From positions 123,451 to 187,450 of the IMG/VR virus record IMGVR_UViG_3300008267_000004: a stretch of DNA of 64,000 nt; one strand, written 5' to 3'. Source of the DNA: a virus. Below the pieces are notes generated by a model. That model made no database searches and was not told the DNA's origin. It worked only from the letters and a program-made list of their open reading frames with translations. Shown piece after piece: positions 1,408-63,497 of this stretch (position 1 is the first letter of the stretch; the number at the start of each line of letters is the position of its first letter). A program made the position numbers and the translations under genes.

Positions 1408-1917
1408 TCACTCTCTATCTGGAAGTTTATTCGCAATAAATTCATAATGAGAGGAAAATTTATCAGTATATAGATCGATCTTTTTCTGTTCGTCATCCCA
1501 CATCTCAATTTTTTTAATTGTTGGATGTTTTCTTAAAATTTTTCTTATTTCTTCTGTCTTAAAATCTCCTGTATCCATACCCATAGGATTCAATTTAACA
1601 AAATCAAAATTAAGACCTTTAAATTTTATCAGATCCCTAATTCTTTCATCAAAAACAGAATCTACTCTTCCAGTAAGCATGATACAAAATGTTTTTCTGT
1701 CAGATAATTCTTTTTTTGCGGCATCAACAGTGGAATCTATCCAAAATCCATTACCTTTTAATGGTACAGAAGGAGGAGATAATGATATTAGTTCTCCCCA
1801 CCAATTTCTTTTATAACCCTGCGGTTTATTTGGACTTCTAAATAAAGTTCCATCGAAATCAAATACCGATAATTTATTATAATATTCTCGTCTTTCCGTT
1901 AGGGTAATTTTAATCAT
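1408..1917 (-). CDS. HAD-superfamily phosphatase (Swiss-army-knife RNA-repair type, HAD_SAK-like)
   Basis: Motif I DFDGTLF, motif II LTGR, motif III K (FKTE), motif IV MWDD. Confidence 0.75.
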   Translation of the reverse strand: MIKITLTERREYYNKLSVFDFDGTLFRSPNKPQGYKRNWWGELISLSPPSVPLKGNGFWIDSTVDAAKKELSDRKTFCIMLTGRVDSVFDERIRDLIKFKGLNFDFVKLNPMGMDTGDFKTEEIRKILRKHPTIKKIEMWDDEQKKIDLYTDKFSSHYEFIANKLPDRE

Positions 1918-1918
1918 T

Positions 1919-2251
1919 CTATCCTCTTGTTTTTTCGTATTCTAAATATTCTGCCACTGTCTCTATAGCTTCTGTAGCAACTGCAATTTTCTCTTGAACC
2001 CAAGGTTCTAAATCATCTTCATCATTTACTAACTTAGATAGCATTGAGGCGTGTTTCATTAAGTTATAAACATTACTTCTAGCCATACGACCATCTGAGT
2101 CGTAGCTTTCTTTATCGGAGTCTCCTAATTTTAGTTTTACTACACCACCTCCAGTGAATGGCATATCTCCACTTAACATTCCCATATCTGCCATACATTC
2201 TTGTATTTCTTCAGATATAATCTTTTTTAAAGATTCTTTGGTTATTTTCAT
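1919..2251 (-). CDS. putative head-internal protein with leader motif A
   Basis: N-terminus MKITKESLKKIISEE; helical C-terminal domain DGRMARSNVY...LEPWVQEKI. Confidence 0.55.
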   Translation of the reverse strand: MKITKESLKKIISEEIQECMADMGMLSGDMPFTGGGVVKLKLGDSDKESYDSDGRMARSNVYNLMKHASMLSKLVNDEDDLEPWVQEKIAVATEAIETVAEYLEYEKTRG

Positions 2252-2260
2252 ATTTTTTCC

Positions 2261-4282
2261 TCAATTATCAAATATTACAAATACAGGATTTGATGGATTA
2301 CTTTGTGGAAGTATACCAATATTTCCTACATGAGAATCATGTAAATAATTTCCAGTTTTTATAAACAAATAAATTGTCTTTGCTAAACTCACAAATTCAT
2401 TTTTTGTTAAAGCACTTGGATACATTTTCTTTTTTTGCATAAAATCTTTAAATATAGAAGCGATCTTTTCTTGGCTAAAAAGAAAAAACTTTTTACTATA
2501 TTTCTGCTCTATTTCTATCATCATATCCTTACACAATTCATAGTCAGATTCAGCATCATCTGCAGATCTTCTAGTTTCTTCCATAAAATCTGATAATGGA
2601 ATTACTCTAGCCATTTCTACATAATTTACTTGCTCTCCAGCATCAAGTTTTATTTCACCCTCGTCATATATTGGAAGATCTGTAATATTACCAGCACTTG
2701 AGAACATTCTTGCTTTTGTTCCCTTATACCAATACATATCACCACCGCCAGAATAGTCATCCTGATATAGTTTTAATATATGCCCATTATCTAGTAGGTA
2801 GATAAAACCTTTTGTTCCAGCTGTTAACAACTCTTGAATTGGCTTACTTAACACAGGGCATTTTTTTACTAACTCAACGGCATCTTGTAAACTTAAATTA
2901 AAATATTTAAGAATATTTTTAGTTCTTTTTCTTTGCCCAAGCTTTAAAATATCATATTCTTCTACATCGCCAATTAGTTTAAAAAAATTTTCTTTTTGTA
3001 TATCCGATAATGAATCAAATAGTGGATTAGATTGGTTTTCTCCAATTGGACCAAATGATTCGCCCGGTGCAATTGTCGCGCCGCCAGCTTGTTTACTTCT
3101 TTTTCTATAAACTTTAGCTACGCCACCAGTTCTATCTTTACTGTACGGATATTTAGAGGTTATTTTAGCATCTTTATATGGATTTGGCAAGGACTTTTTT
3201 TTACTTAAATTTTTTGGAGATTTTAATTTTGCTAATTTTTTTTCTTGCATTTTTTTCTTTAGAGCTAATCTCTTTTTCTTGACTTTCTCTAAAAATTCAG
3301 AAATCTCCTCTGATAACTCCTCTGTGCCTTGTAGTTCTTTTTCAAAGATTTTATGTATCTTTGCATTCATACTTCTGGACTTTTCCTGTTGTAGTTGTGC
3401 CCATTCAAGATCTAGCTTGTTTCCTGGTTTTCTTTTCGCGTGTTTAGATCTTGAATCTGCTCTTATTTTCCAATAATTACTTAAAGTGGCTTCCCCTAAT
3501 AAATTTTTAGTATTTCTGACTAACATCTCATTGAATGTTTCATCAGAAATTCCTATCTCCCTATCTGTTTTTTTAAACCTGTTAGATGTTATTAATCGAT
3601 CAAAACCTTCTGATTTAGAAGGTTCTTCAAAGTTTTTATATATTTCTTCGTAATCTGATTTAGATACTCCCCTATCAAATTCTGGACCGTATCTTTCTAG
3701 GAAGTCTTTTGCTCTTAATTCCGCTGATCTTAAAATTTGTTTTTCATATCCCTTAAAAGGAAATACAACACCAATTATATTAAAATCGTCCCTGCCAGAT
3801 ATATAATCAATTGTAGTTTTTCTATTGCTTCTAGTCATATGTATTGCATCTACTACAATATTTTTTACATCAGAAGAAATAGCATTTTTTAATTCTGAAT
3901 CATATATGGCATTTAATTCTTCACCAGCAGCATGAGCGTTTTCAAACGCTAATTCTTCTACTTCCTTTCCCTTACTCTTACTGAATCTTGTATATTTTGT
4001 TAATCTTCCAAGTTTCTTTTTTTCTGGATGCTCTTCACCAACTTCAAGATCTTGTGTTGGAACCTTAAAAATATCCTTGTTTGCTAGATTATATTTTGGA
4101 AATATAACATCCTCTATTATTTCATCTTTAGATATAATAATTCTATTGTCCTTAACATTGTTCTCTATCCAGCTAGATTTTCCTACAGCTGGCGGTCCTA
4201 TTAAGACAAAGAAATTTCTTTTAGAAGAATTAGATTCTTCTTTTTCTTCTAATAGCCATTTCTTGAATTTAAATATATTCAC
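2261..4282 (-). CDS. multidomain protein: P-loop (AAA_33/polynucleotide-kinase-like) + basic linker + protein-kinase-like domain
   Basis: Walker A GPPAVGKS, VVD Walker B; C-terminal GTKGFIY / ILKLY / HDSHVGNIG / VIFD kinase-fold motifs. Confidence 0.7.
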   Translation of the reverse strand: MNIFKFKKWLLEEKEESNSSKRNFFVLIGPPAVGKSSWIENNVKDNRIIISKDEIIEDVIFPKYNLANKDIFKVPTQDLEVGEEHPEKKKLGRLTKYTRFSKSKGKEVEELAFENAHAAGEELNAIYDSELKNAISSDVKNIVVDAIHMTRSNRKTTIDYISGRDDFNIIGVVFPFKGYEKQILRSAELRAKDFLERYGPEFDRGVSKSDYEEIYKNFEEPSKSEGFDRLITSNRFKKTDREIGISDETFNEMLVRNTKNLLGEATLSNYWKIRADSRSKHAKRKPGNKLDLEWAQLQQEKSRSMNAKIHKIFEKELQGTEELSEEISEFLEKVKKKRLALKKKMQEKKLAKLKSPKNLSKKKSLPNPYKDAKITSKYPYSKDRTGGVAKVYRKRSKQAGGATIAPGESFGPIGENQSNPLFDSLSDIQKENFFKLIGDVEEYDILKLGQRKRTKNILKYFNLSLQDAVELVKKCPVLSKPIQELLTAGTKGFIYLLDNGHILKLYQDDYSGGGDMYWYKGTKARMFSSAGNITDLPIYDEGEIKLDAGEQVNYVEMARVIPLSDFMEETRRSADDAESDYELCKDMMIEIEQKYSKKFFLFSQEKIASIFKDFMQKKKMYPSALTKNEFVSLAKTIYLFIKTGNYLHDSHVGNIGILPQSNPSNPVFVIFDN

Positions 4283-4284
4283 TA

Positions 4285-4905
4285 CTAACCTCCAACTTTA
4301 ACTTTCATAATCAAGAAGCCGTCTTTAACCTCTGAACTAACAGTACTTGCTTTTCCGCTTGATACTCTGGATCCACCAACATCTCTACCTCTTACCGCAT
4401 CAACAGCCATAGCTCTTGCGTCCATTTGAGCAGACTCTAATCCCATGCTGCCACCTCTTACAGGAACTTTTACGGTTACTACATTTCCATCTACCTTAAG
4501 GACTTCACCTCTTCCAGCTTTTTTGGCAGGGGCTGATGGTTTGACAGAGCCAGCATCAGATCCTAAATCTGCTCCTGATGTTGGTTTTACACCAACTGTT
4601 ACAAATTTTCCTGGGCCGTATCTACTATCTAGTAGATCGTTCATAACATCTCTAACTTCGGAAGCGTTTGCACCTAAATCATCAACAACAATTGAACGAG
4701 TAGATCCATCTTTAACATTCTTGACGGTTACTTTTACTGGTTCTGCTTCTGCTGTATTGGCAGCACCGTAACCCATGCTCATAAGAGCGCCAGCAAACAA
4801 TGCTGCGATGTTTTGTTTTAAACCTTCGAATAGTTCTTCTTGCTCCAACTCTTTTTTAATTTCTTCTGATACAATTTGATTGAGTTTTGATACTGTAATT
4901 TTCAT
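4285..4905 (-). CDS. putative head-internal protein with leader motif A and an internal signal-peptide-like segment
   Basis: MKITVSKLNQIVSEE...LFE then GLKQNIAALFAGALMSMGYGAANTAEA. Confidence 0.5.
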   Translation of the reverse strand: MKITVSKLNQIVSEEIKKELEQEELFEGLKQNIAALFAGALMSMGYGAANTAEAEPVKVTVKNVKDGSTRSIVVDDLGANASEVRDVMNDLLDSRYGPGKFVTVGVKPTSGADLGSDAGSVKPSAPAKKAGRGEVLKVDGNVVTVKVPVRGGSMGLESAQMDARAMAVDAVRGRDVGGSRVSSGKASTVSSEVKDGFLIMKVKVGG

Positions 4906-4914
4906 TTTTTTCTC

Positions 4915-5280
4915 CTACTGTAAGGTTAATAAGTACTTTAGTTTGTTAACTTCTGCTAACATTTCATCTCTTATATTCATAAGATCACTATCGCAACTAG
5001 GATCTAGTATAGCACTGATTCCAATTAACATTTCACAACATGCGTTACAAAATTCTATTGGTTTTAATTCTTGTAAATTTTTTAACTCCAAACTACAAGA
5101 TTCATCTAAAATAAATCTATCATGTTTTCCCATGCATATTTCAACATATTTGTCTATAAGGCCACTTAATGTATCATAAGTAGCACCAAAAGCTTGGTGA
5201 CGAGCATAAGATTTTGTTTGCCAATGAAATATTCTTAACTGCTGTTCCATTTGTATAAGTGAAATAATTATCTTATCCAT
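4915..5280 (-). CDS. ferritin/Dps-like four-helix-bundle protein (DUF5856-like)
   Basis: QLRIFHWQTKSYARHQAFG..YD.L..LID..VE and IRDEMLAEVNKLKYLLTL. Confidence 0.7.
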   Translation of the reverse strand: MDKIIISLIQMEQQLRIFHWQTKSYARHQAFGATYDTLSGLIDKYVEICMGKHDRFILDESCSLELKNLQELKPIEFCNACCEMLIGISAILDPSCDSDLMNIRDEMLAEVNKLKYLLTLQ

Positions 5281-6299
5281 TAAAAATCCCCTGTTTCAGA
5301 ACCATATTTATCTTTATCTGCCATATCTTGCAATTCTAGCTCTTCTGCATATTCAGGAATTTCTTTTGCTAGTGCTTGCTTGTATTCTTCTACTGACATA
5401 TTTTCAAATTCTGCCTCGGAAGGTAAAAATCCATAAATTTGAGGGTATTCATCTGCAAATCTACTTTCAACATCATCATAAATATTTTCTTTCTCTCGCT
5501 GTTTTTTTTGAAAATCTGTAATTTCGGATATTTTTTGCTCTATAAGAGTTCTTATATACTTTTTAGTAATTTTTTGTTTATTCTCTTTCATGGAATCAGC
5601 TACCTTTTTTAAGCTTGGGACATTATCAACAGAAACCACTTCATCAAAACCTTCTGCGGCTTGATCAACTTTTTGAAAACTTTTAAACATTCTATCAAAT
5701 GCAGCTTCTGGGATTGTTTTTGATTTACCTGCTGCTTTTGCTTCGGCTGCGCGTTTTGCTGCCACACTCTTAATTATATCTTCTGCGCCTTCAAAGTTAA
5801 ACACCACAGCGACTTTGTGATAATCACTTTCAGACCCTTCAATTGCTTTTAAAGCTCCTTTTCTAGCTCCTGGAGTCATATTAGTCATATCGACAACAAT
5901 AACTGGTTGTCCTTTTGCTTCCTGAACTCTGCCATTGAACCTTCCAAAGACTCTTCCGTTTGCCTCAATAACTTTGTCATAGGCGGTTGGATTAAAGGCT
6001 GCATGTGGAGGAGATTTAATCACTGTACCATATTTTTCACTAACATCTCCCTCTTTAGCATCTGGTGGAGGAAGCATAAACATATCATCATATGTCCATC
6101 CATAGTCAGCTGCAATTGCCTCTACAATATCATCTCTATTAATAATATATGGATCTTGATTTCCAAAAGTTTTTTGAATCCAAGTAGATTTTCCAACAGA
6201 TGGTGGACCAACTAAAACGTAAATTTTCTTTTTATCCAATTCTTCATTTAGCGTAGAAAACTTCCTCCAGTTTTCCATAATAATTTTCATATTTTTCAT
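5280..6299 (-). CDS. P-loop kinase (AAA_33/polynucleotide-kinase-like) with leader motif B
   Basis: GPPSVGKSTW, IINRDD, IVVDMTNMT..ARK; paralogous to the N-terminal domain of 2261..4282. Confidence 0.7.
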   Translation of the reverse strand: MKNMKIIMENWRKFSTLNEELDKKKIYVLVGPPSVGKSTWIQKTFGNQDPYIINRDDIVEAIAADYGWTYDDMFMLPPPDAKEGDVSEKYGTVIKSPPHAAFNPTAYDKVIEANGRVFGRFNGRVQEAKGQPVIVVDMTNMTPGARKGALKAIEGSESDYHKVAVVFNFEGAEDIIKSVAAKRAAEAKAAGKSKTIPEAAFDRMFKSFQKVDQAAEGFDEVVSVDNVPSLKKVADSMKENKQKITKKYIRTLIEQKISEITDFQKKQREKENIYDDVESRFADEYPQIYGFLPSEAEFENMSVEEYKQALAKEIPEYAEELELQDMADKDKYGSETGDF

Positions 6300-6323
6300 A
6301 TTATTATCCTATATTATATCTTA

Positions 6324-6734
6324 TTACCACTTCCTACATGACCAATATCTAGCTTTTGTTCTTGGACCTGGATTAGCGCAGTTATGACGAGCACGAAATG
6401 ATTTACGACGTTTTGGATTACTTTTTTTAATACGCATATTCTTATCGCCAAAGTTTACTTTTTTAACGTTTCCGGTTGAAGGGTCGCGTACAAATACTTT
6501 AAACTTTTTTACATCTCCCCTCATTGGTTTTCCTAGAGGAACAGTACGTCCTTGATACTTTGCTTCTTCAAGTTTATCTGGGCATCCGCATGTTAATTCT
6601 TCATATAGACATGCTTCGCAAACAAGAGTGCCGTCTTCTAAGGTAGAATCATTATTGCCTAGTTGTTCAACAATTAATGCTTCATGGATGCTTTCTTTTA
6701 CGACTTTTCTTAAGTCTGATTGTGAAATTTTCAT
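6324..6734 (-). CDS. small basic Cys-containing phage protein with leader motif A
   Basis: KKVNFGD...RRKSFRARHNC...KARYWSCRKW, a pattern I recognise as recurrent in large phages. Confidence 0.55.
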   Translation of the reverse strand: MKISQSDLRKVVKESIHEALIVEQLGNNDSTLEDGTLVCEACLYEELTCGCPDKLEEAKYQGRTVPLGKPMRGDVKKFKVFVRDPSTGNVKKVNFGDKNMRIKKSNPKRRKSFRARHNCANPGPRTKARYWSCRKW

Positions 6735-7330
6735 TCTTGTTCCTCTTTTTTAGTTTTCCAAGATACTCTTTTTGAGCTTTTTTTCTGACTAGCCCCTTTT
6801 CTGTTACAAGCACTTGGAGTAGGACGACAGGCCGGATATTTACTTCTTTTTTCACCGTCACTTCTGCCACAGGTTTTACAAGTTTTTCGACCAGTCTTAG
6901 GATTAGTCCTACAGGTATTACAATCTACCCATCCTTTACTTTTACCCTTGCCGCCCTTACGAGCAAACCATCCATGAAGACCTTGAGATTTTTCTTTATC
7001 AAAAGTGCCTTCATCCAGTTCTAACTCTAGAGTTTCATCTACCTCTTCATTTGCTTTTTTTTTACGTCCTACTTTACCTTTACGGCAACGAACAATAAAT
7101 CCTGAAGCATATGCTGAAGGGAATACATCATATTTTTGTTTGGCTAAATGATAACATCTATCTTTTTTTTCATAAATAACACTTTCATCTAAGTTAGAGT
7201 CTTCTTCCATTCCAACGTATTCTAAACGATTATCACCAGCAGAGTCTATCTCTCCCGCTCCTCGTCGTAAATCATCATTTTGTTTATTTAACTCTAAAAC
7301 TCTTTTACGTGAAATTTTTACTTTTATCAT
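6731..7330 (-). CDS. basic Cys-rich phage protein (DUF5872-like PSAYASG module + second module)
   Basis: KKDRCYHLAKQKYDVFPSAYASGFIVRCRK and GLHGWF...GWVDC...CGRS...YPACRPT modules; start set at ATG 7330. Confidence 0.55.
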   Translation of the reverse strand: MIKVKISRKRVLELNKQNDDLRRGAGEIDSAGDNRLEYVGMEEDSNLDESVIYEKKDRCYHLAKQKYDVFPSAYASGFIVRCRKGKVGRKKKANEEVDETLELELDEGTFDKEKSQGLHGWFARKGGKGKSKGWVDCNTCRTNPKTGRKTCKTCGRSDGEKRSKYPACRPTPSACNRKGASQKKSSKRVSWKTKKEEQE

Positions 7331-7335
7331 ACGAA

Positions 7336-7343
7336 TAAATAGT
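7336..7343 (-). promoter_or_regulatory. putative phage late promoter
   Basis: Sense ACTATTTA, the same motif as upstream of the structural genes. Confidence 0.6.
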
Positions 7344-7357
7344 AACATTAAAACAAA

Positions 7358-7381
7358 ACGGGAGGCATTTCTGCCTCCCGT
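7358..7381 (-). terminator. intrinsic terminator after hsp20
   Basis: 10-bp stem ACGGGAGGCA/TGCCTCCCGT followed by a U-rich tail. Confidence 0.75.
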
Positions 7382-7400
7382 CGATTAAAAAATATATCTT

Positions 7401-7784
7401 TTAATTTACAACTACATCAACATTTATTTTTTTTGTCACTGGCTCTTTATGATTCAAAATTACAGTCAGTAATCCATTTACAAGTTTAGCAGAAACAGAT
7501 TCGCTATCAATATTATCAGGAACTAACCAGTTTTCTTCAAACTGTCTTGCATAAGCTGAATCAGTAGAAGGTTTTACCACAATTTTTAGCATTTTATCTA
7601 CAACTTTAACAGATACATCGTCTTTTGACGCACCAATTGCTGGTATTTCAAGTCTATATCCATTATCATTTTTATGTTGTACATATTCCGGCGTTCTGTG
7701 TTGAGGTTTTCGATAATATGTGTGAGGTGTTGTAAATGCTTTTGTTACATCATCAAAAAGTACGTCTAAATTACCAATTGCCAT
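7401..7784 (-). CDS. small heat-shock protein (Hsp20/alpha-crystallin)
   Basis: YRLEIPAIGASKDDVSV...F...W.VPDNID...VSAKLVNGLLTV.L. Confidence 0.9.
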   Translation of the reverse strand: MAIGNLDVLFDDVTKAFTTPHTYYRKPQHRTPEYVQHKNDNGYRLEIPAIGASKDDVSVKVVDKMLKIVVKPSTDSAYARQFEENWLVPDNIDSESVSAKLVNGLLTVILNHKEPVTKKINVDVVVN

Positions 7785-7826
7785 ATATATTTCTCCTTTG
7801 TTGTTGCGGAATCCCGCTCAACAAAT

Positions 7827-7854
7827 AATCTAAAACACAATTTTTGTGTGTCAA
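7827..7854 (-). promoter_or_regulatory. sigma70-type promoter for hsp20
   Basis: TTGACA-16 bp-TAGATT. Confidence 0.55.
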
Positions 7855-7856
7855 GA

Positions 7857-8237
7857 TCAATTTAATTCATACTTAAATCCATATTCTTGAAGCAGTAATT
7901 GTTTTTGTTCCTCTATGGATAAAGAAAATTTCTGTAGAAGGGTCAACTCAAATTTTGTAACTAGAACATCTTTTATGTTATTTTCATTACAGAATTTTAT
8001 TTCTTCTTCTGGTGGGTCGTTTATCTTTTTATCTAATAGTTCCCTCAAAGAGGATAATATAACAACAGTTTCCATAAAATCAGGAATTGGTGTATTTTCC
8101 CAATTATCTATATTATGTTCTAGTATCAACTCTTTTAATTTATCGGCAACCATATAATAATATCTATCAGTGTCAGTCATCAGTTCTATATACTTATCAA
8201 ATAGAATAGTATAATATTGTGGTTGCTCTTTTGCCAT
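7857..8237 (-). CDS. hypothetical protein
   Basis: Helical ORF; start set at ATG 8237, coupled to the upstream stop. Confidence 0.55.
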   Translation of the reverse strand: MAKEQPQYYTILFDKYIELMTDTDRYYYMVADKLKELILEHNIDNWENTPIPDFMETVVILSSLRELLDKKINDPPEEEIKFCNENNIKDVLVTKFELTLLQKFSLSIEEQKQLLLQEYGFKYELN

Positions 8238-8755
8238 TATCTGTTTCCTATACCCCAAAAATTTTCGTTTGATTTAGAATCTGTAACGAGTTCAATAGCA
8301 ATTATTTCTTTATTAAACTTGTTTATGGTTCTAAAACCATATAACTGCAAATTACCATATGGTTTTTTGGGATCTTTTTTCTGACCTTTCTTTTTAGTTT
8401 CGGTCTGATTTAAATAGTTTACACATCTTACAACGATTTGTTCATCTGTAAGACCATTATTTCTATGTTTTTCTAGGTCTGTATCCAAATAGGCCAAAAC
8501 AACAAAAGAGTTCTTACCAAATCTATTTAATGTATATGTAGATTGTGCATATCTACCAGCTTTTTTAATTTCGTTATTGATATGTGAATATTCATTAATG
8601 GGTACAAGAGAACATTCTAACATTTCTTCAGTAGAGAGATCAAATGTAGGAGCTACATATGGTTTAGATTCAACTACAAAAACCTCTGGTGTTTTATTTT
8701 TATCTTTTGGAGGTCGCCCTAGTCTTTTACCGTTTTTACTAAGTTTAACAGTCAT
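8237..8755 (-). CDS. hypothetical protein with an AT-hook-like N-terminus
   Basis: KRLGRPPKDK motif; SD GGAGAGGG. Confidence 0.5.
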   Translation of the reverse strand: MTVKLSKNGKRLGRPPKDKNKTPEVFVVESKPYVAPTFDLSTEEMLECSLVPINEYSHINNEIKKAGRYAQSTYTLNRFGKNSFVVLAYLDTDLEKHRNNGLTDEQIVVRCVNYLNQTETKKKGQKKDPKKPYGNLQLYGFRTINKFNKEIIAIELVTDSKSNENFWGIGNR

Positions 8756-8758
8756 GTA

Positions 8759-9088
8759 TTATCCCTCTCCATTTTCTTTATTTTCATCTTTATTTACGTT
8801 AGGAAGCACTAATCTTTCAGGCTCTAGCTCGCTAGCTTTATGTTTAGCATAAGCAGTTAAAATACTAAAACAATCAGAGCAAACCATATCTATATATGCT
8901 ATTTCATCCCTAAAATTATTTAGGGTTTCTGCTGCTTTTATAATGTTTTGAGTCTGGATAAGGCTCAAAACATCTTCAAGTATTTTACAGGCTGATTTTT
9001 GCATCATATTTACTGATTGTAATTTTGCAGTAACTTCTTTTGGAAGATCATCTACTTTTACAGTTATTTGTATTTTTGCATTTTTCAT
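8759..9088 (-). CDS. hypothetical protein
   Basis: Start moved to ATG 9088 (SD GGAGA) because the longer start lies inside a hairpin/promoter. Confidence 0.55.
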   Translation of the reverse strand: MKNAKIQITVKVDDLPKEVTAKLQSVNMMQKSACKILEDVLSLIQTQNIIKAAETLNNFRDEIAYIDMVCSDCFSILTAYAKHKASELEPERLVLPNVNKDENKENGEG

Positions 9089-9104
9089 ATTTTCTCCATA
9101 AAAA

Positions 9105-9133
9105 ATCGGACAGTTGTTTTTCAACTGTCCGAT
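9105..9133 (-). terminator. intrinsic terminator overlapping a promoter
   Basis: 12-bp stem ATCGGACAGTTG/CAACTGTCCGAT with U tail. Confidence 0.75.
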
Positions 9134-9134
9134 C

Positions 9135-9163
9135 ATTATAACTCATTTATTTTACTCAGTCAA
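9135..9163 (-). promoter_or_regulatory. sigma70-type early promoter
   Basis: TTGACT-17 bp-TATAAT. Confidence 0.8.
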
Positions 9164-9167
9164 GCCA

Positions 9168-9488
9168 TTATTTAGATATTAAATCTGTAAAAATTTTAAC
9201 CATAACTGAAATAATTCCGCCTCCTAGTAACCACATAAATTTAGCATGAGTTTCTTGTGAATTTTTGATAAGAGCTAATTCTTTATGTAATTCTGGCGGG
9301 GTTGTCTGCTCTAATACAAGAACTTTTTTCTCTAATTCTTCTACCGTTTTATCCATTTTGCATAATGAGGTTTCGAGTCTGGAGACTCCGCTATTTAATT
9401 GATCTAATTTTGATATTAGTCTTTCCGTTCCTAATTTTATTTCTATAACCATCATCTCTAAGTCTTTTTTATTATCTTGTTCAGACAT
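9168..9488 (-). CDS. coiled-coil protein with a C-terminal transmembrane helix (holin/XhlA-like architecture)
   Basis: Heptad-rich body, FMWLLGGGIISVMVKIF hydrophobic tail, late motif at 9512-9519. Confidence 0.5.
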   Translation of the reverse strand: MSEQDNKKDLEMMVIEIKLGTERLISKLDQLNSGVSRLETSLCKMDKTVEELEKKVLVLEQTTPPELHKELALIKNSQETHAKFMWLLGGGIISVMVKIFTDLISK

Positions 9489-9511
9489 CTTATTTCCTCG
9501 TTAGATGATAG

Positions 9512-9519
9512 TAAATAGT
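9512..9519 (-). promoter_or_regulatory. putative phage late promoter
   Basis: Sense ACTATTTA. Confidence 0.6.
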
Positions 9520-9520
9520 T

Positions 9521-11098: not shown

Positions 11099-11117
11099 AG
11101 TATTACCCTTTACCTTT

Positions 11118-11588
11118 CTATTTTGAAAAAACTTCTTCTACTGTAGCATCTACAGTAAAAGGTTCAATTGATTTCCAATCTTTAATTTTTGCCGCTAAAA
11201 ACGGCTTTACTGTTTCATCTCTTAACATGGCTGTTATATGAGGCACTCCACTTTGTACGTACATATCCGTATCAACTTTCCAAGCGGCTATTCCAAGCTT
11301 TTCATCTACTCCAAAGGCAACTATCTTTAGTTTAGTTGGTACATTTAACTCTATAGGAGTTTTAGATTTATTTGCTGGGGAAGGTACTATAGTCATGTGA
11401 TGATTTAATTGTTCATTCCCATGAGAACCTACAGAGGAGTCTTTCCATCCTTCTACCCTAAGTCCTAATTCATCTAGCTTAGAATTTAAATTTTCTACAT
11501 CTTGTACAACAGCACCTGTATATAACGCTACTTTAGCATCTTCTTTTAAGAAATTTCTCCAACCTTCCATTAATTTATCTAAACTCAT
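11118..11588 (-). CDS. 2H phosphoesterase (cyclic phosphodiesterase) with leader motif B
   Basis: Two HxT motifs (HHMTI at H64, PHITA at H117) in a 156-aa protein. Confidence 0.75.
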   Translation of the reverse strand: MSLDKLMEGWRNFLKEDAKVALYTGAVVQDVENLNSKLDELGLRVEGWKDSSVGSHGNEQLNHHMTIVPSPANKSKTPIELNVPTKLKIVAFGVDEKLGIAAWKVDTDMYVQSGVPHITAMLRDETVKPFLAAKIKDWKSIEPFTVDATVEEVFSK

Positions 11589-11593
11589 TCACT

Positions 11594-52633: not shown

Positions 52634-52690
52634 CTTTTTTTCCTCTTTTGAATATAGATTGTTCGCGTTGTAGCTATAGTAACAATATTA

Positions 52691-53272: not shown

Positions 53273-53293
53273 TTTTTTTTCCTCTGTTTAACT

Positions 53294-53301
53294 TAATTAG
53301 A
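53294..53301 (-). promoter_or_regulatory. putative late promoter variant
   Basis: Sense TCTAATTA upstream of tail tube copy 1. Confidence 0.45.
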
Positions 53302-53315
53302 TAGAAATTTAATTT

Positions 53316-56297: not shown

Positions 56298-56341
56298 ACT
56301 TTATTTCTCCTTGAGGGATAGAGATTCGTGATAATTTATTA

Positions 56342-56349
56342 TAAATAGT
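56342..56349 (-). promoter_or_regulatory. putative phage late promoter
   Basis: Sense ACTATTTA upstream of the sheath gene. Confidence 0.65.
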
Positions 56350-56372
56350 TAACTGTGTTTGCAAATGTCATT

Positions 56373-56876
56373 TTATTTTGCATTAAACACATTCTCTCTT
56401 GCTCTAATACACTTAGCATCAATTTGAAAAGAGGTATCTTGACCGAATAAAACTCTAGACTCATTTAGTGTTACTATTTCGTAGTATAAACCATCATATA
56501 GAAGAAAATCTCCTTCTCTTACATATAAATCTTGATCTTCTACTAATCTACGTTTATGAAATTTAACAGTTAATGATATTCTTCTATCGATACCAAATGA
56601 ATCTAAATTTGTTCCTGAACCTTCCCAAGTTACTAATACAAATACCCTAACAGGCGAAAGAAATGTTTTTTGCATTGCTTCACCATATACTGGGTGGTAA
56701 TATGTATTTTCTCTGCTAATTGGATAATATATAATTTCTTGACCTATAACTCTTTCCAGAAGTTCATCATTTACCTGTTTTACTAAATTTCTTTCTTTCT
56801 GCCCAAGAAATAAAGGTGGGGGAGGTGAATCTGGTGGTATTTCTACTAAATTTTCTTCTTTCTTTTTTCTAGCCAT
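56373..56876 (-). CDS. neck / head-completion protein (gp14-like)
   Basis: GQEIIYYPI...HPVYGE...F..P; VREGDFL.Y...YYEI; position in the neck cluster. Confidence 0.6.
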   Translation of the reverse strand: MARKKKEENLVEIPPDSPPPPLFLGQKERNLVKQVNDELLERVIGQEIIYYPISRENTYYHPVYGEAMQKTFLSPVRVFVLVTWEGSGTNLDSFGIDRRISLTVKFHKRRLVEDQDLYVREGDFLLYDGLYYEIVTLNESRVLFGQDTSFQIDAKCIRARENVFNAK

Positions 56877-56878
56877 CT

Positions 56879-58117
56879 TTATACTCCCAATTTATCTATA
56901 GCATCTTGAATAATTTGATTATGATCAAAAGCTAATTTGGTTGATAAGGCTTTTTCTACTGAAACCCATCCCGCTTCTTCTGCGTCATCTCTTCCCGCTA
57001 CTTTTTGATTAATATCTTCCGGTAATAAAACTGCAAATGCAGTAGTTCTTGACCAAGATTCTTCGTTATCTCTAGGATCCCTATTATTTCCTTCGTATTT
57101 TCCAACTTGGATCATCGATCTATTTAAAGAAGGAATATATAAACCAGTTTCTTCTGTTAATTCTCTAAAAGCTGCTTGTCTAGCAGACTCTCTATCATCT
57201 TTCCATTGTTTTCCTTTGGGCTGATTTGTGTCATGAAAACCACCAGGTAATGCATAAAATCCTGGATACGCTTTACTTGAGGTATTTCTTTTTATTAGTA
57301 ATATCTTTAGAGTATCGTCAAATTTTTTAAATACAGCTATATCGACAGTTGGATTAGCACCTGGTCTCCAGAATGGCTGTTCATCACTTCCCCAATATTC
57401 TACAGGTTTAGATATTTGACCATATGATCTATTCATATACCTTCCAATTAATTCGTAGGAAGAAGGGACTAAAAATACTGCCTGTGAAGACTGTAAAATA
57501 TGAATATTTGAACCTTTATCAACTACAGCATCGTATCCCATATCTCTTAAAATTTTATTCCATATAATAGTAGATCTTTTTGTATATTGACCAACTCTAG
57601 ATTGATCTGTTTCTGCTATCGCTTGAGATACCCCCCAAATTTCTGATGCTTGATTGTCATATTTATAAAGATCTGCATTTTGTTTAACATCTTCTACAAA
57701 CTCTTCAAAATTTTTTCCCACCTTCTTCTTTATACTCTTTTCATATACATCTTTTAAGAAGTTTATATCTTTTGAATAATTTGCATAAGACGATAAATTT
57801 AACACTCTATCTGTATTTAATCTTATTAGATTAACATATTTTCTATCATCTCCAAAAAAACGATCTCCAGATACCCAATCTTGCCATAAATCTTTTAAAT
57901 TATAAGCATAAACGCCAATTGGAGTTGAAAATCTATTATTTGGGTTAACACCTATTTTTTCTAAATCTGTAAAACTGACAAAATAATTATCATCATCAGA
58001 AAATCTTTCTAGCCTCTTTAAAATAGGGATATTTACATTCTCTGGCCTCTTTTTCTTTTCTGTAAGAAAATTTCTCCAATTAGAAAATAAATCATAAACT
58101 TGTTTTTCTTTAGTCAT
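56879..58117 (-). CDS. NUDIX hydrolase (ADP-ribose pyrophosphatase-like) fused to an N-terminal ART-like domain, with leader motif B
   Basis: PTVDIAVF, LLIKR, ALPGGF, RELTEETGL NUDIX box, GRDDA..A.W, LAFDH..II. Confidence 0.75.
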   Translation of the reverse strand: MTKEKQVYDLFSNWRNFLTEKKKRPENVNIPILKRLERFSDDDNYFVSFTDLEKIGVNPNNRFSTPIGVYAYNLKDLWQDWVSGDRFFGDDRKYVNLIRLNTDRVLNLSSYANYSKDINFLKDVYEKSIKKKVGKNFEEFVEDVKQNADLYKYDNQASEIWGVSQAIAETDQSRVGQYTKRSTIIWNKILRDMGYDAVVDKGSNIHILQSSQAVFLVPSSYELIGRYMNRSYGQISKPVEYWGSDEQPFWRPGANPTVDIAVFKKFDDTLKILLIKRNTSSKAYPGFYALPGGFHDTNQPKGKQWKDDRESARQAAFRELTEETGLYIPSLNRSMIQVGKYEGNNRDPRDNEESWSRTTAFAVLLPEDINQKVAGRDDAEEAGWVSVEKALSTKLAFDHNQIIQDAIDKLGV

Positions 58118-58120
58118 TTT

Positions 58121-59392
58121 TTAACCTACAAATATTAAGTTTGGAATAAAAGTGTTAACTTTCTGAGCGTCTTCTGCTATCTTAGCGTTGTCTTCACCGA
58201 GTTTAGCATAAGTCATCTCCGCTAGTTGAGTTTTTAATTCTTCTCTTAAATCTTTTTGTTCCTCTTTACCTTCTGCAATTAATTTATCGCCATTTAAAGT
58301 TACGCTTTCTCCTGGAATTGGTATAGTACCAAATTTACTTCTAACTTGTCCTAGCATTTCTTTGGAGATAGCTAAGGCAAATCTACGGATCCATTGTTTT
58401 CCAATCGAATTAATTTTATCATATGGTAAGTTTTCAAATGGTAAAGTATTCATATTATTGATTCCATCTACATTAGTAGTAGAATTACTCTCTCCAGAAT
58501 CCCAACCATTTTGCTCTATAGTAAATTCAAACCAAAAACGATTTGCACTGGATGCCTGTGGTACTGGAAATAATCTAAGGACGTTATTTCTTAGTTGATA
58601 TGACCAGTCGCTAACTCTAGTTTTTATTGCATCTTTATAAGCCATGGCCTGTAATTTATTTTGCCACACTGGAATTATCTCAAATGTACTGTCATCTGCA
58701 TATTGTCCATAAGTTGAAAGATTTCCTACTACGTTTAATCCTCCGAAATATCCATAAAAATTCCAAGATGCTCCAGCTGTTTTATAATACACTTTTCGTA
58801 TATTTATACTTTTTCCCTCAATATCCCATCCATATTCATCAGCAGAAGAACTTACTGCATTTATTAGATCATAGTCTTGCTGCCCAGGATTTATATCAAA
58901 AGAAGCAGAATATATTGGCTGACCGCTGTTTAGTAATGCCTCTGTTGCTGTAAATAATCCAACATTTTTTGCATATCCTAAACTAAATTTTGGTAATTTT
59001 AGGCTGATATTATCGGGTAAATCTGAACCAGTTAATTGACCATTGTTATCAAATGTACCCGTAGCTTGACCTATCAAAAATGGTAATGCATTTTTAGATT
59101 GATGTAAGTTTATTAAATAAGAGTATTCTAAACATGCTTCTTCATACGCAGCATGTACTTGTGTTTCCACTAACTCAATATCTAATATGTCTCCACCTAG
59201 TTTTTTATATACATACGATACCTGTTCGGCAGATCCACTTTTATATAAACTAATCTGAGAAGAATTCCAATAATCAGAATTTACATAAATGCCAAAAGGA
59301 AGTGTTTGTGAAGTTACATTTGAAATACTACCAGTAGATGGTAAAATTACTTTACTCATCATTGATACTGGTGTTAAAGTTGGTAATGACAT
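58121..59392 (-). CDS. neck protein (gp13-like head-tail adaptor)
   Basis: KLGGDILDIEL...V...YEEA..EY; WIRRFALA..K..LG.VR.KF..IP.PG..V.LNG. Confidence 0.7.
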   Translation of the reverse strand: MSLPTLTPVSMMSKVILPSTGSISNVTSQTLPFGIYVNSDYWNSSQISLYKSGSAEQVSYVYKKLGGDILDIELVETQVHAAYEEACLEYSYLINLHQSKNALPFLIGQATGTFDNNGQLTGSDLPDNISLKLPKFSLGYAKNVGLFTATEALLNSGQPIYSASFDINPGQQDYDLINAVSSSADEYGWDIEGKSINIRKVYYKTAGASWNFYGYFGGLNVVGNLSTYGQYADDSTFEIIPVWQNKLQAMAYKDAIKTRVSDWSYQLRNNVLRLFPVPQASSANRFWFEFTIEQNGWDSGESNSTTNVDGINNMNTLPFENLPYDKINSIGKQWIRRFALAISKEMLGQVRSKFGTIPIPGESVTLNGDKLIAEGKEEQKDLREELKTQLAEMTYAKLGEDNAKIAEDAQKVNTFIPNLIFVG

Positions 59393-59426
59393 ATTATTTC
59401 CTCAGATGCGTTAAATCCTTTCTTAT

Positions 59427-59434
59427 TAAGTAGT
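59427..59434 (-). promoter_or_regulatory. putative late promoter variant
   Basis: Sense ACTACTTA upstream of the neck gene. Confidence 0.5.
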
Positions 59435-59459
59435 TTTATTTAAACGAATAATCAAAAAA

Positions 59460-59489
59460 AACCCCGCTAATCTTTCGACTAGCGGGGTT
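59460..59489 (-). terminator. intrinsic terminator after the major capsid gene
   Basis: Minus strand AACCCCGCTAGTC-GAAA-GATTAGCGGGGTT (GNRA loop) plus U tail. Confidence 0.85.
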
Positions 59490-59509
59490 CCAATTAACTT
59501 ATAGGTTAA

Positions 59510-61309
59510 TTAGCCTTGTAGATCTTGTACAACAACTAGGCCGTACATGTCTGGACGAACCATTGCTTTACCATAACGAGTCATAACAGCTTTGCGTGGT
59601 GCAAAAGTGTTTGGATCGAAGATGGTTGGGGTGCTTTGTAGTGGTACATATGGAGCATAAACATAACCACTTTCTAGGAAGCTTCCACCTTTACGTCCTA
59701 CTAAGATTACGTTACGTAGGAAGTATGGATGAACAATGATATCCCATTTCTTGTTTAGATCACCTACTTTAACAGCACCTACTGAACCTTTTTCATCAGT
59801 TGCAGTTACTGAAGCGCGGAATCCAGAAGTAAATTCTAGGATGTTTGCAACTTCTGGTCCGCAGACTAAGAAGTTAGCACCACCACGTAGAGTTTTACGG
59901 TGGATAGCTGCTGATACGTCGTTGATTGTTTCAACTAGGGTTTCATACCACATTGAAACGTTACCGGTGAAGTCTGGTGGTCCTGCATATGAATTAGCAG
60001 TACCAACTTCGGCACCAGAAGAACGATCTAAGAATTTACCTGGACGGCGTGACCAGTATTTGACACCGGCAGTTTGTCCCTTAACTAGATCGTTTAGAAT
60101 TTCTTGATCAATTTCTAGACCAATTTGTTCTGATAACATAGAAGTTAATTCAACTTCAGCATCTAGGTTGTGGTAAGCATTTAGATCTTGACCTAATTCT
60201 GGAGTCCATGCAGCCTTTAGCTTACGAGTACGAGCTGTAATGCTGAATGAATCTACTTTTAGCTCTACTTCTGGGATTGCTGAAGAGCCTTCAAATGTCC
60301 ATGGAGATGTACCAGCTAATGCACCTAGAGCACTTGCTCCTACGTTAGCTAGATTATCTTTAATTGGGAAGGTTACAACAGCTTGTGAAGCACCAGAGAA
60401 TAGGTTTGCTTTTGTTGGAGAGGTAGAGGTAGTAGCTACTACGAATGATACTGTACCAGCTGCCTTGTTTACTGTTGTTAGACGGCGAATTACTTTTGCA
60501 CTTCCACCTAGAGCACCACCACCTGTGTAATCTCCAGCTGAATCAACTGCAGATGAACCAGTTACCAATGATGCAGCAAATACGTCTTGTTCTGCAATCA
60601 AAGCAGCGGCTCCACCGCTAAATCCTAGATCAGAAAGATTAAATGTTACAACAGATGCTGAAACATATGGAGTTGCATCTCCACCAGCTAATAGATCTGC
60701 ATCATAACGAATTGCAGATAATTGAGCGGCAGTTGCATTTGCTCCCTTGCTTTCTAGATTGAATGGAGTTGCTACTGTTACGCTAGCAGTTGCAACTGAT
60801 TTTGACCAACGTGATGTGTTGTAACCGTTAGCTAAGTTGTAGAAACCTTTTTCAGCATAATCTACACCATCTACACGTACACCACCAGTGATTTCAACAC
60901 CTAGACGATCACCGAAGAAAGAGCTAGATGCTGGGAATACAACGTCACCTGTGCTACCTACGTTAGTTCCTCTACGGAAGTCCATAAAGAATACTAGACC
61001 TGATGGTAAGCTCATTGGTTGTACTGAAACTAGATCATTTGCGATCAAGCCAGCAAATACACGACGGACGATTGGGAACGCAACAGCGGCAAAGCCTTGT
61101 ACGTCACCTGCAGCCATTGTGGTTGCTTCTTTTAGTAATTCAGCAGCTTGGTTTTCTAACAAGCGTGCCATTGTGCTCTTTTGACGAGCAGATGATAGTC
61201 CTTCTAATAGACCACTTTTTTCCCATTTAGAAACTAGAGTTTCAGTTTCTTTTAGTAGGTTTCTTTCTACCATACCTTCTGTTAATTTTTCTAATACATT
61301 ATTACCCAT
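59510..61309 (-). CDS. major capsid protein (T4 gp23-like) with a large insertion domain
   Basis: FPIVRRVF..LIA..LVSVQPM..PSGLVF, TRKLKAAW.PE..QDL.AYH.LDAE.EL, YVYAPYVPL, TRYG. Confidence 0.93.
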   Translation of the reverse strand: MGNNVLEKLTEGMVERNLLKETETLVSKWEKSGLLEGLSSARQKSTMARLLENQAAELLKEATTMAAGDVQGFAAVAFPIVRRVFAGLIANDLVSVQPMSLPSGLVFFMDFRRGTNVGSTGDVVFPASSSFFGDRLGVEITGGVRVDGVDYAEKGFYNLANGYNTSRWSKSVATASVTVATPFNLESKGANATAAQLSAIRYDADLLAGGDATPYVSASVVTFNLSDLGFSGGAAALIAEQDVFAASLVTGSSAVDSAGDYTGGGALGGSAKVIRRLTTVNKAAGTVSFVVATTSTSPTKANLFSGASQAVVTFPIKDNLANVGASALGALAGTSPWTFEGSSAIPEVELKVDSFSITARTRKLKAAWTPELGQDLNAYHNLDAEVELTSMLSEQIGLEIDQEILNDLVKGQTAGVKYWSRRPGKFLDRSSGAEVGTANSYAGPPDFTGNVSMWYETLVETINDVSAAIHRKTLRGGANFLVCGPEVANILEFTSGFRASVTATDEKGSVGAVKVGDLNKKWDIIVHPYFLRNVILVGRKGGSFLESGYVYAPYVPLQSTPTIFDPNTFAPRKAVMTRYGKAMVRPDMYGLVVVQDLQG

Positions 61310-61331
61310 TTGAGTCTCCTGTGAATGATAT

Positions 61332-62705
61332 TTATCTAATACCAGCTAACGCTTTCATGCGATCTGCCATTAAAGAATCTAAACTCGCTGGTTGTTTAGA
61401 TCTTGTTAAGAAAGGCGTTGATCCACGATTGATTGCTTCGCTTAGTGATTTTGGTGTTTTTTCTTTAACACTCTGCACTGTGCTTTGAAGAGTTTCGTAG
61501 ATTGTTTTTGCCTCTATAACACTTTCAGCCTTAGTAATGTTTTCGACAATTTGAGATTTTTGTCGCTCATTCAAGGAGACATTACTTAGAACTTTATTCG
61601 TGTACAACAATTTAGCATTTGAAATATTGATCTTATCTAATTGATCCTTTAAACTATTAACTGCTTCTAATAATTTTTCGTTTGTAGAGTTTAATGAATC
61701 AGTTTTTTCTTTTTCTTTAAGAAGCTTTTTATCCATAATTTTTAAAGATTCTTCTAAGTCGGAAAGATTCTTTTTAGCATATTCCCTTCTAGAAACTTCT
61801 TTATCGCCTCTAGCTTTTGCATAAGCTACTTTTTTGGATTCTCTTTCTTCTCTTTTATTTGTTCCCATATATCCATCTGGAACATTTTCCATGTCAACCA
61901 TTAAAGACTCTTCTAGTTCTAGAAGCTCTTCTTCTGTTAACTCTACTTCTTCGTTTACATCGGAAGCAACAGGTGCAGATTCTGCTGGTGATTTTTCACC
62001 TTTCTCTTTTGCAATTTTTTCAGCTTCTGCTTTTGCAGCTGCTCTTGCTTTATCACTCTGTTGTTGAATTCTTGCTGCCTCTTCTCTTTTTTTAGATGCT
62101 TGCATTGATAAATCATCTGCTGCTTTATTAGATGTTTCAACATCTTCATCTAATTCAAGTTCAAGTTCTAACTCTTCCTCTTCTGCTTGAGATCTATGAT
62201 AAGAAGTACCAGGATTATCATAACTTTCTTTAAATTTAATTCTTAAAGCCTCAGCCATTGGTTGTGGTTCTGCTGCTGGTGCTGGTGCAGTAACCGCAGG
62301 AGGAGAGGAAAGCATTGTTACTTGTGAAGTCGATGGTTGTGCTTTTAGCTGATCAAAATTAATTGTTATTAATTCGTCATCATCTCCATCTAAATTAAAA
62401 AAGGCTGTTTTAACATTTTTAAATGGATCTTTTTTATCCATACCAATACCTGTTCCTGTTGCCATCGGAGTAACTGGTGCAGGAGGAGTTACTGTTGGAC
62501 CTGTTGGATCCGCAGCATTAGCAGACGCAGTTTCTTGATCAACTTCTGCTGGTGGAGGGGTTTCTTCCTCTTGTTCTAGCAATTTTTCAACTTTTTCTTT
62601 AAATTCTTTCGAGTACTTCTCAATTAGTGAAGCTTCAGCACTTTTCATTGCTGTTTCTCGGAGAGCAGCTGCATCTATAATTGCTTGTTCTAACATTGTT
62701 GACAT
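61332..62705 (-). CDS. prohead core scaffolding protein
   Basis: MLEQAIIDA..LRE.A...A, acidic coiled coil, NAKLLY.NKVL, C-terminal RMKALAGI; immediately upstream of the MCP gene. Confidence 0.75.
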   Translation of the reverse strand: MSTMLEQAIIDAAALRETAMKSAEASLIEKYSKEFKEKVEKLLEQEEETPPPAEVDQETASANAADPTGPTVTPPAPVTPMATGTGIGMDKKDPFKNVKTAFFNLDGDDDELITINFDQLKAQPSTSQVTMLSSPPAVTAPAPAAEPQPMAEALRIKFKESYDNPGTSYHRSQAEEEELELELELDEDVETSNKAADDLSMQASKKREEAARIQQQSDKARAAAKAEAEKIAKEKGEKSPAESAPVASDVNEEVELTEEELLELEESLMVDMENVPDGYMGTNKREERESKKVAYAKARGDKEVSRREYAKKNLSDLEESLKIMDKKLLKEKEKTDSLNSTNEKLLEAVNSLKDQLDKINISNAKLLYTNKVLSNVSLNERQKSQIVENITKAESVIEAKTIYETLQSTVQSVKEKTPKSLSEAINRGSTPFLTRSKQPASLDSLMADRMKALAGIR

Positions 62706-62746
62706 TAACTATTCTCCCAATACAGGAATACTTTATACTTTTTAAT

Positions 62747-62754
62747 TAATTAGT
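62747..62754 (-). promoter_or_regulatory. putative late promoter variant
   Basis: Sense ACTAATTA upstream of the scaffold-MCP operon. Confidence 0.55.
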
Positions 62755-62807
62755 GTAATACAGAACGAAATGACAAAATATTATAATTTAAATATTATTT
62801 AAATCAT

Positions 62808-63083
62808 TTATCGGCTTTTTTTCTTCTTAGAATCCGATTCAATCTCTGAATTTAACTCTAAATTATAATTTTTTGCATTTCTTTTATATTTACTTCTTTT
62901 TAGTCGTTCTTTTACACTTTTTTTAACAAATCTTCTTGTATATGAACATTCTTCATAAAGATATTGTACTAAAGATTCCTTGCTACACTCCTTAAGAAAC
63001 TTTTTAATTAATATATCCGTAGATTCCTGAGAAGGGCTTACACCTTGAGGTAATCTTACCTCTAATAATACTGCTCTAGACAT
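62808..63083 (-). CDS. divergent ribosomal protein bS21-like protein
   Basis: V..EVR...E..DILIKKF.KEC.K..LV...RRFVKKSVKER.KR aligns by eye with the bS21 consensus; located next to scaffold/MCP. Confidence 0.55.
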   Translation of the reverse strand: MSRAVLLEVRLPQGVSPSQESTDILIKKFLKECSKESLVQYLYEECSYTRRFVKKSVKERLKRSKYKRNAKNYNLELNSEIESDSKKKKSR

Positions 63084-63086
63084 TTT

Positions 63087-63497
63087 TTACCTATTTCTCT
63101 TTCCCTCGAGTAATTCGAGTTGTTGATTCCATGAGTTTATCATGTTTTTGTCAAATAATTTATCAACATTTACACCTTCTTGTCCTTTTGCTTCCACCGA
63201 ATCTATATCCTCCGTCCCAGCAAAAGGATCAAATCCTGAAAATGATGCTGCTTTTTTAACTTCCTGTATTGCTTGCTTTTTTTCCTCTACAGATTCTTTT
63301 TGTAGAGATTTAATAACAGATTTTGTTTCTGGCATTGGTCTTTTTTGTATAGAATTTTGTGTCTGTTGAGAACTTTCATTCAAATTATGCTCTTTTAACA
63401 TACGTATTAAGCCTTCTTGAAGCATTATTTCATGCAAACACTCTTTAATTAGTGGCTTAATTATTGATTTCATTTGCTTTTTTTCTTCTTTATTCAT
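63087..63497 (-). CDS. hypothetical head-module protein
   Basis: MKSIIKPLIKECLHE..LQEG leader resembles motif A; late-motif variant at 63517-63524. Confidence 0.5.
   Translation of the reverse strand: MNKEEKKQMKSIIKPLIKECLHEIMLQEGLIRMLKEHNLNESSQQTQNSIQKRPMPETKSVIKSLQKESVEEKKQAIQEVKKAASFSGFDPFAGTEDIDSVEAKGQEGVNVDKLFDKNMINSWNQQLELLEGKRNR

Follow-up and report, generated by a model that had tools for sequence, protein, structure and literature searches.

Portable N-terminal leaders on unrelated proteins of an uncultured T4-like phage clade are candidate capsid-targeting propeptides

In phage T4, a short N-terminal helix, the capsid-targeting sequence (CTS), is carried by the otherwise unrelated internal proteins IPI, IPII and IPIII and by the propeptides of Alt, gp24, gp22 and gp21, and is removed by the prohead protease gp21 (PMC9026906, PMC3012670). 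The internal protein propeptides span 10–19 residues, of which the first 10 are enough to direct packaging; targeting depends on positions 4 and 7 and processing on positions 8 and 10, an Asp in position 10 prevents processing, and an LIE-9 site is present in gp21 itself (PMC9026906). Across T-even phages the internal proteins are diverse and the CTS alone is conserved (PMC3012670). Here we analyze the final 64 kb (bases 123451–187450, hereafter the window) of the 187,450-bp IMG/VR virus record IMGVR_UViG_3300008267_000004, which is 100% complete according to CheckV, and describe two classes of short N-terminal leader, A and B, that recur on unrelated proteins and probably serve as propeptides of the T4 kind. 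Genes are named by "w" and their start in the window, or by "genome" and their start in the full record; all genes of the window lie on the minus strand, as do all window coordinates given below.

The leaders of this phage resemble the T4 CTS in being short N-terminal helices on unrelated proteins, in their hydrophobic-hydrophobic-x-Glu end with the same Phi-x-x-Phi-Phi-x-E spacing (Phi, hydrophobic), and in their setting, which includes an S77 protease, a gp20 portal, a gp23 capsid and some tagged genes in the position of gp67 and gp68. What is new relative to T4 is a different leader sequence of fourteen rather than ten residues, two interchangeable codes (A and B, plus minor classes), a larger and faster-turning cargo set (at least 14 tagged genes here, and approximately 16 in 16 kb of one relative, L116), and enzyme cargo of the RNA-healing type, packaging in this phage being our inference. 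The fast-turnover gene arrays, which conserve the leader alone, recall those of T-even phages, but are far larger, occupy several loci and occur in a distant clade, aquatic and uncultured, whose replication module contains PolIII-alpha. Encapsulin cargo-loading peptides likewise send diverse enzymes inside an HK97-fold shell by means of a short terminal peptide; unlike the leaders described here, they are usually C-terminal and uncleaved, and involve neither DNA nor delivery. In phiKZ, 201phi2-1 and SPN3US, head and ejection propeptides are cut at S/A-x-E by the prohead protease (PMC9026906, PMC5694885, PMC10052503); the likeness lies in the many head-internal proteins processed after Glu and in the redundant sites within a propeptide, whereas these propeptides are long, share no portable tag and have a small rather than hydrophobic P3 residue. 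Phage P1 also loads counter-defence proteins into its capsid and injects them, but through a DarA/Hdf-dependent protein hierarchy with no common cleavable N-terminal tag (PMC9024508, PMC12810830).

Leader A (M-K-I-T-x3-L-x2-[IV][IV]-x-E) occurs in ten proteins genome-wide, always from residue 1–3. Four of these lie in the window, namely w1919..2251 (110 residues; 22.7 bits at residue 2), w4285..4905 (206 residues), the basic Cys-rich protein w6324..6734 (136 residues) and the acidic protein w16365..16637 (90 residues), whose ortholog in the relative G003 retains the leader; the other six start at genome 1560, 14111, 14367, 77929, 85076 and 87163. Leader B (..M-E-N-W-R-x-F-L-x-E) stands near the N-terminus of four proteins: the AAA_33/polynucleotide-kinase-like kinase w5280..6299 (339 residues, P-loop from approximately residue 28), the 2H phosphoesterase w11118..11588 (156 residues, CNPase/Trl1-CPD type), the ORFan w29099..30127 (342 residues), which sits among replication genes, and w56879..58117 (412 residues), a protein with a C-terminal NUDIX domain encoded between the major capsid protein (MCP) and the tail sheath. 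The N-termini quoted in a preliminary description of this DNA were all found at the genes it named, and its leader assignments are solid for the four A genes and for the first three B genes, the leader of w56879 being weaker (16.7 bits).

We used several approaches to ascertain that this similarity is real. First, an all-versus-all comparison of N-terminal 24-mers gave 29 pairs at or above 35, compared with 0–3 in internal or shuffled controls; part of this excess comes from an array unrelated to the leaders, which comprises approximately 25 small paralogs with a common N-terminal K-x-G-x-I-Y strand (genome 94167–100794, outside the window; loci L005 and L006). Second, a hidden Markov model (HMM) built from the leaders of relatives alone recovered 7 leaders of this genome at E ≤ 0.01, all at residue 1–3 and including those of w1919, w6324 and w16365, and gave no match in the reversed proteome or in any of 20 shuffled ones. 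Third, the leader codons differ synonymously and the DNA upstream of leader genes is unrelated, so that it is the peptide that is under selection; a DNA repeat or translation box was ruled out on these grounds. Lastly, the bodies behind the leaders have no mutual blastp similarity save for two kinases and one common C-terminal domain. Whole-protein paralogy was accordingly ruled out for most, being real only for the kinases w2261 and w5280 and for the C-terminal domain of genome 85076, genome 85934 and w2261, and the earlier claim of unrelated bodies needs these two reservations. The motifs do not extend equally to replication proteins, as none of the replication or nucleotide-metabolism proteins of the genome is tagged. 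A tblastn search of a phage collection with a 28-residue leader returned two marginal Pectobacterium matches only, and the leader peptides were not found in the literature searched. The tags and their modularity are established.

Both classes end in the same way. Among 17 aligned leader-A sequences, Glu14 is present in all 17, always after [ILV][ILV]-x, and a back-up L-x-E often follows at residues 20–22. Leader B, when at the true N-terminus, has the leader-A layout (Met1, a hydrophobic residue 3, Trp8, Phe11, Leu12, Glu14), and the layout common to A and B, with Met1, hydrophobic residues 3, 8, 11 and 12, and Glu14, follows the Phi-x-x-Phi-Phi-x-E pattern seen in the CTS leaders of T4. In the T4 genome (NC_000866), the leaders of IPII, IPIII, Alt and gp24 fit Phi4-x-x-Phi7-Phi8-x-E10, with identical spacing at an offset of four residues, and the T4 gp21 start (..L-L-I-E9-T-W) recalls leader B; the proteases of the clade all begin M-S-K-x-L-L-R-E8. 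A candidate maturation site is also evident in the MCP (w59510..61309), which reads ..L-L-K-E61|A-T-T-M-A-A-G at the propeptide/mature boundary. The N-terminal domain of this protein aligns with the T4 gp23 propeptide (E = 1e-7), and E61|A falls within approximately 10 residues of T4 E65|A, at the border to the conserved mature N-terminus, which bears out the capsid site proposed in the preliminary description.

The family of the 2H phosphoesterase w11118 provides a view of these leaders that does not depend on their sequence. The w11118 body has 51 homologs in a library of 1.8 billion proteins and contains two H-x-T motifs, with H64 and T66 invariant and H63, H117 and T119 present in at least 90% of members; Pfam tRNA_lig_CPD (PF08302) is matched by 17 of 35 homologs, w11118 itself being below threshold. 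The top Foldseek PDB matches of its AlphaFold (AF2) model (pLDDT 94.7) are all CNPase (prob 1.00, TM ~0.55, E 3.5e-3), and the leader is modelled as a separate helix of residues 3–16 that ends exactly at F-L-K-E16 and is followed by a four-residue linker. Nine members of the family start straight at the first strand, while others have leader B, leader A or further short leaders. One and the same body is thus found naked, with A or with B; the tags are portable, as the idea of modular leaders had it. Since the family was gathered by body homology and not by leader sequence, its N-terminal extensions, scored where they were 12–45 residues long, give an unbiased test of the cleavage site. Phi-Phi-x-E was present in 22 of 27 extensions compared with 2.5 ± 1.4 (maximum 6) in equal-length windows of the bodies, and the final Phi-Phi-x-E lay 4–12 residues ahead of the first strand whatever the leader class. 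That every leader class should share a site ending in Glu is expected of a propeptide that a protease removes, but not of a plain docking helix or a degron. The w11118 model is also weakly similar to the phage anti-CBASS nuclease Acb1 (Foldseek rank 50, E 0.17), and the enzyme may act in the breakdown of cyclic-nucleotide signals.

Judged by its sequence, the phage is a distant T4-like myovirus, uncultured and from water, with a GC content of 34%. The nearest cultured relatives of its gp23-type MCP (Pfam Gp23, PF07068, 240 bits), at less than 50% identity, are the Flavobacterium 'immuto' phages, Microcystis phage Mel-JY01 and Rhodothermus phage RM378; its portal is of T4 type (Portal_T4, PF07230, 260 bits) and a gp21-type prohead protease is encoded at genome 953–1558 (Peptidase_S77, PF03420, 106 bits). 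At least 600 MCP relatives are present in IMG/VR. We compared the partial records of four relatives (G001–G004) and the 11–20 kb loci that were scanned on three long metagenome contigs. Each of the four partial records has approximately 3 to 7 confident leader-A genes, and in G004 six tagged genes with mutually unrelated bodies form a tandem array. With just the N-terminal 40 residues of a consensus leader protein as query, a search recovered 317 proteins, a set biased toward exact words of that query; among the 120 matches listed, the leader is near-invariant and at residue 1 in 103, and the bodies fall into 95 clusters, none with a Pfam domain. In L116, a 99-kb relative, one 20-kb stretch adjoining the terminase and portal contains approximately 12 leader-A and 4 leader-B genes that are interleaved, which indicates that both classes belong to one system.

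Tagged genes are linked to head genes. The prohead protease has a tagged gene no more than two open reading frames (ORFs) away in approximately 11 of 13 distinct relatives; this is the position of the core proteins gp67 and gp68 in T4. In the present genome the head module spans the contig ends, starting with the terminase, portal, two small genes and a small membrane protein, and continuing with a leader-A protein of 91 residues, the protease and a 141-residue protein up to the contig join; past the join it comprises w63524, w63087 (A-like N-terminus), w62808, the putative scaffold w61332, the MCP, w58121, the NUDIX gene w56879 with leader B, and the tail sheath.

The motif ACTATTTA further connects tagged genes with structural ones. 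The coding strand has 19 copies and the opposite strand one (15:3, 10:0, 7:0 and 9:0 in relatives). In relatives the motif precedes sheath, scaffold and tail genes by 17–60 nucleotides and thus behaves as the structural-gene promoter of the clade, presumably acting late in infection. The site at w56342..56349, 44 nucleotides upstream of the tail sheath gene, serves as the reference structural promoter. Another copy (w7336..7343) is at the head of a tight block of eight genes from w6731 to w1408, six of them tagged; two sites within w17645..17693 lie upstream of the acidic w16647 and then the leader-A gene w16365; and one at w30160..30167 lies 32 nucleotides upstream of w29099, with leader B. 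The motif also heads the terminase–portal unit, a tail unit, and a unit that runs from a leader-A gene and the protease probably through the MCP to the NUDIX gene, and it stands directly ahead of leader genes in G001–G004 and L116. The copy at w29099 sits in a 13-bp inverted repeat with T-rich sequence after it (w30150..30182), and there overlaps a terminator-like hairpin.

We consider it probable that the leaders are T4-CTS-like propeptides removed by the S77 protease. In its favor are the tags themselves and their portability, an ending of the cleavage type, the presence of a protease gene, the linkage to head genes and a promoter motif shared with structural genes. Leaders A and B, together with two or three less frequent types, would form N-terminal amphipathic helices of approximately 14 residues, with hydrophobic residues at positions 3, 8, 11 and 12, that dock the newly made protein on the scaffolding core during prohead assembly. 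The candidate docking partner is the putative scaffold w61332..62705, assigned from its gp22 position alone, with no family match. The gp21-type protease would then cut after the Glu of the terminal Phi-Phi-x-E (Glu14 in leader A), releasing the mature protein within the head to pass into the next cell along with the DNA. Evolution has placed this portable tag on many unrelated bodies.

Several observations weigh against this reading. The P1′ residue is mostly Glu, not the Ala or Ser of T4 sites, and leader B of w29099 has no site where one is expected. The bare Phi-x-x-Phi-Phi-x-E pattern is only 1.7-fold enriched at N-termini (26 versus 15.2) and was rejected as too weak for a stand-alone predictor. 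The leader-A HMM has no significant match to T4 IPI–III, Alt, gp24, gp22 or gp21, which makes the likeness one of pattern and not of demonstrable homology, and the leader profile has no match in T4, RM378 or Mel-JY01 and one marginal match in immuto. No ACTATTTA is near the leader-A genes at genome 77929, 85076 and 87163; the earlier claim that nearly all such genes lie downstream of this motif was thus too strong, being true at operon level inside the window and untrue of several leader genes elsewhere in the genome. Cargo of 593–673 residues is large, and the presence of a clade-conserved ClpP and a GroEL among the tagged genes allows other readings.

One such reading, which we regard as unlikely, is that the leaders are generic docking or oligomerization helices unrelated to the capsid, which join split RNA-repair domains or hand clients to the phage chaperonin. 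Kinase, 2H and NUDIX domains and the untagged HAD_SAK_1 phosphatase of the window occur elsewhere fused ('Swiss-army-knife'; Pfam names), the leader is a free amphipathic helix in the w11118 model, the tagged genes are interspersed with those for GroEL and Hsp20, and the N-terminus of gp23 directs fusions to GroEL (Rao and Black review, PMC3012670), all of which would fit. However, GroEL was seen in just 2 of 5 partial relatives, and generic helices leave unexplained the invariant Glu and the Phi-Phi-x-E ending across different extension classes, the linkage to prohead protease and scaffold genes, and the hundreds of tiny tagged proteins without an enzyme domain.

It is also conceivable, if quite improbable, that the leaders do target the prohead core and that the tagged proteins are for the most part expendable pieces of the scaffold or core, like T4 gp67, gp68 and gp22, to be degraded and expelled rather than injected as effectors. 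The tagged genes adjoining the protease encode fast-diverging Ala/Pro/Gly-rich or coiled-coil-like bodies, as this would have it, and T4 core proteins are also gp21 substrates (PMC9026906). Yet folded enzymes with intact catalytic motifs are tagged as well (the two H-x-T motifs of w11118, the P-loop of w5280 and the NUDIX motif of w56879), and a single conserved site lies just ahead of the folded domain, as in the retained T4 internal proteins and Alt.

Very improbable, in our view, is that the leaders are N-terminal degrons for ClpXP or the phage ClpP that time the removal of proteins. The gene for ClpP (w14630) is part of an operon of tagged genes and has counterparts in 4 of 5 partial relatives; leader B (M-K-L-I-L-x5-F) loosely fits ClpX N-motif-2, a motif that is itself broadly defined. 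The co-occurrence with ClpP is clade-wide and so does not discriminate, and given that the records of the relatives are incomplete, co-occurrence with ClpP or GroEL is uninformative; moreover, degrons need no conserved Glu-terminated site, and the adjacency to head genes and the structural-gene promoter motif would be left unexplained. We assign a negligible probability to chance, to plain paralogy and to a repeated DNA element (a translation-initiation box, for instance) as the source of the similarity: the leaders are rich in Lys, Glu and Ile, whose codons an AT-rich genome favors, but shuffled and reversed proteomes gave no matches, codons differ synonymously beneath unrelated upstream DNA, and the element is strictly N-terminal in relatives, on unrelated bodies.

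The remaining tagged or putatively tagged genes are more varied. The 673-residue protein w2261..4282, with an N-terminal P-loop kinase domain (AAA_33) and the C-terminal domain in common with genome 85076 and genome 85934, has a leader type of its own, Phi6-x-x-Phi9-Phi10-x-E12, which matches the Phi-x-x-Phi-Phi-x-E ending. The basic Cys-rich protein w6731..7348 (205 residues) represents a fourth N-terminal type, M-I-K-[VI]-K-I-S-[RK]-K-R-x-L-E, that recurs in genome 85934, and the 136-residue head-module protein w63087..63497, between protease and scaffold, has an A-like N-terminus conserved in relatives; described previously as degenerate forms of leader A, these two are better regarded as separate classes, each conserved or shared elsewhere. 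For the conserved phage protein w12846..14627 (593 residues), neither of the two motifs once proposed has statistical support, and neither homologs nor fold gave a lead to the function of this protein or of w29099. The body types listed earlier hold for kinases, the 2H phosphoesterase, NUDIX, basic Cys and acidic proteins, but not for 'nuclease folds', w29099 being an ORFan. At residue 244 of w5280 there is a weak internal A-like motif, which at 1.5 bits is not significant, contrary to its earlier inclusion, together with a weak Pfam DUF7570 match (E 0.003); a second, internal or C-terminal copy of leader A is also found in L024:4988–5761 (residue 243), L116:6702–7970 (residue 315) and L117:10001–10573 (residue 100). 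Such copies may be internal processing sites or reflect fused genes. The 43-residue PHROG profile phrog_13235 matches residues 6–30 of w56879, just the leader-B region, so that the tag is already a PHROGs 'family'.

Other genes lie among or near the tagged ones. Two untagged members of the tagged operon encode a HAD_SAK_1 phosphatase of the 'Swiss-army-knife RNA repair' family (w1408..1917, 67 bits) and a DUF5856 protein (w4915..5280). The very acidic 319-residue protein w16647..17606 (95 Asp+Glu) begins M-S-K-K-Q-L-L-E-E, which resembles the M-S-K-x-L-L-R-E of the clade proteases and is conserved in G003; this product may represent a further leader class or a DNA mimic. A proteostasis set comprises ClpP (w14630..15316, 114 bits, with an N-terminal extension of 87 residues), a GroEL-type chaperonin (w9521..11098, 231 bits) and Hsp20 (w7401..7784). 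In L116 a tubulin-family gene (L116:7984–9126, PF00091) is directly upstream of the leader-gene array, and w39797..40624 of the present phage has a G-x-G-x-x-G-like N-terminus and no Pfam match. The replication set is not T4-like, including PolIII-alpha, DnaB, RecA, FEN and RNR; the genome combines T4-type head and tail genes with a bacterial-type set (w20705..24142, w40626..41834, w18247..19317 and w36031..36960) that comprises PolIII-alpha with a PHP domain, a short PolA-like fragment, an IMPDH/GMP reductase and the UV endonuclease UvdE.

The 2H cyclic phosphodiesterase, the two polynucleotide-kinase-like kinases and the NUDIX protein, beside the untagged HAD_SAK_1 phosphatase, suggest a kit for RNA end-healing or for the degradation of cyclic nucleotides that would be at hand as soon as infection begins. 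No RNA ligase (PF09414) was found in the genome, and a full heal-and-seal pathway is therefore not demonstrated. The 'anti-host arsenal' envisaged previously is plausible only for the few recognizable enzymes; most tagged proteins are small, and many of the small low-complexity ones may be core or scaffold components rather than effectors. More speculatively, and with less confidence than we attach to the propeptide reading itself, this clade of abundant uncultured aquatic T4-like phages might use interchangeable two-code labels to fill the capsid with hundreds of fast-evolving proteins, including an RNA-healing or cyclic-nucleotide kit that neutralizes tRNA-cleaving or nucleotide-signalling defences before phage gene expression. 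The tags are candidate tools for loading foreign proteins into the capsids of phages other than coliphages. If the tags work in this way, likely injected proteins of a large group of environmental phages could be recognized from sequence by their first 14 residues and catalogued as candidates for immediate-early counter-defence; RNA-repair-type enzymes would be a predicted new class of packaged cargo, and the T4 CTS principle, which covers three or four proteins of a single model phage, would become a loading system that is general and evolvable.

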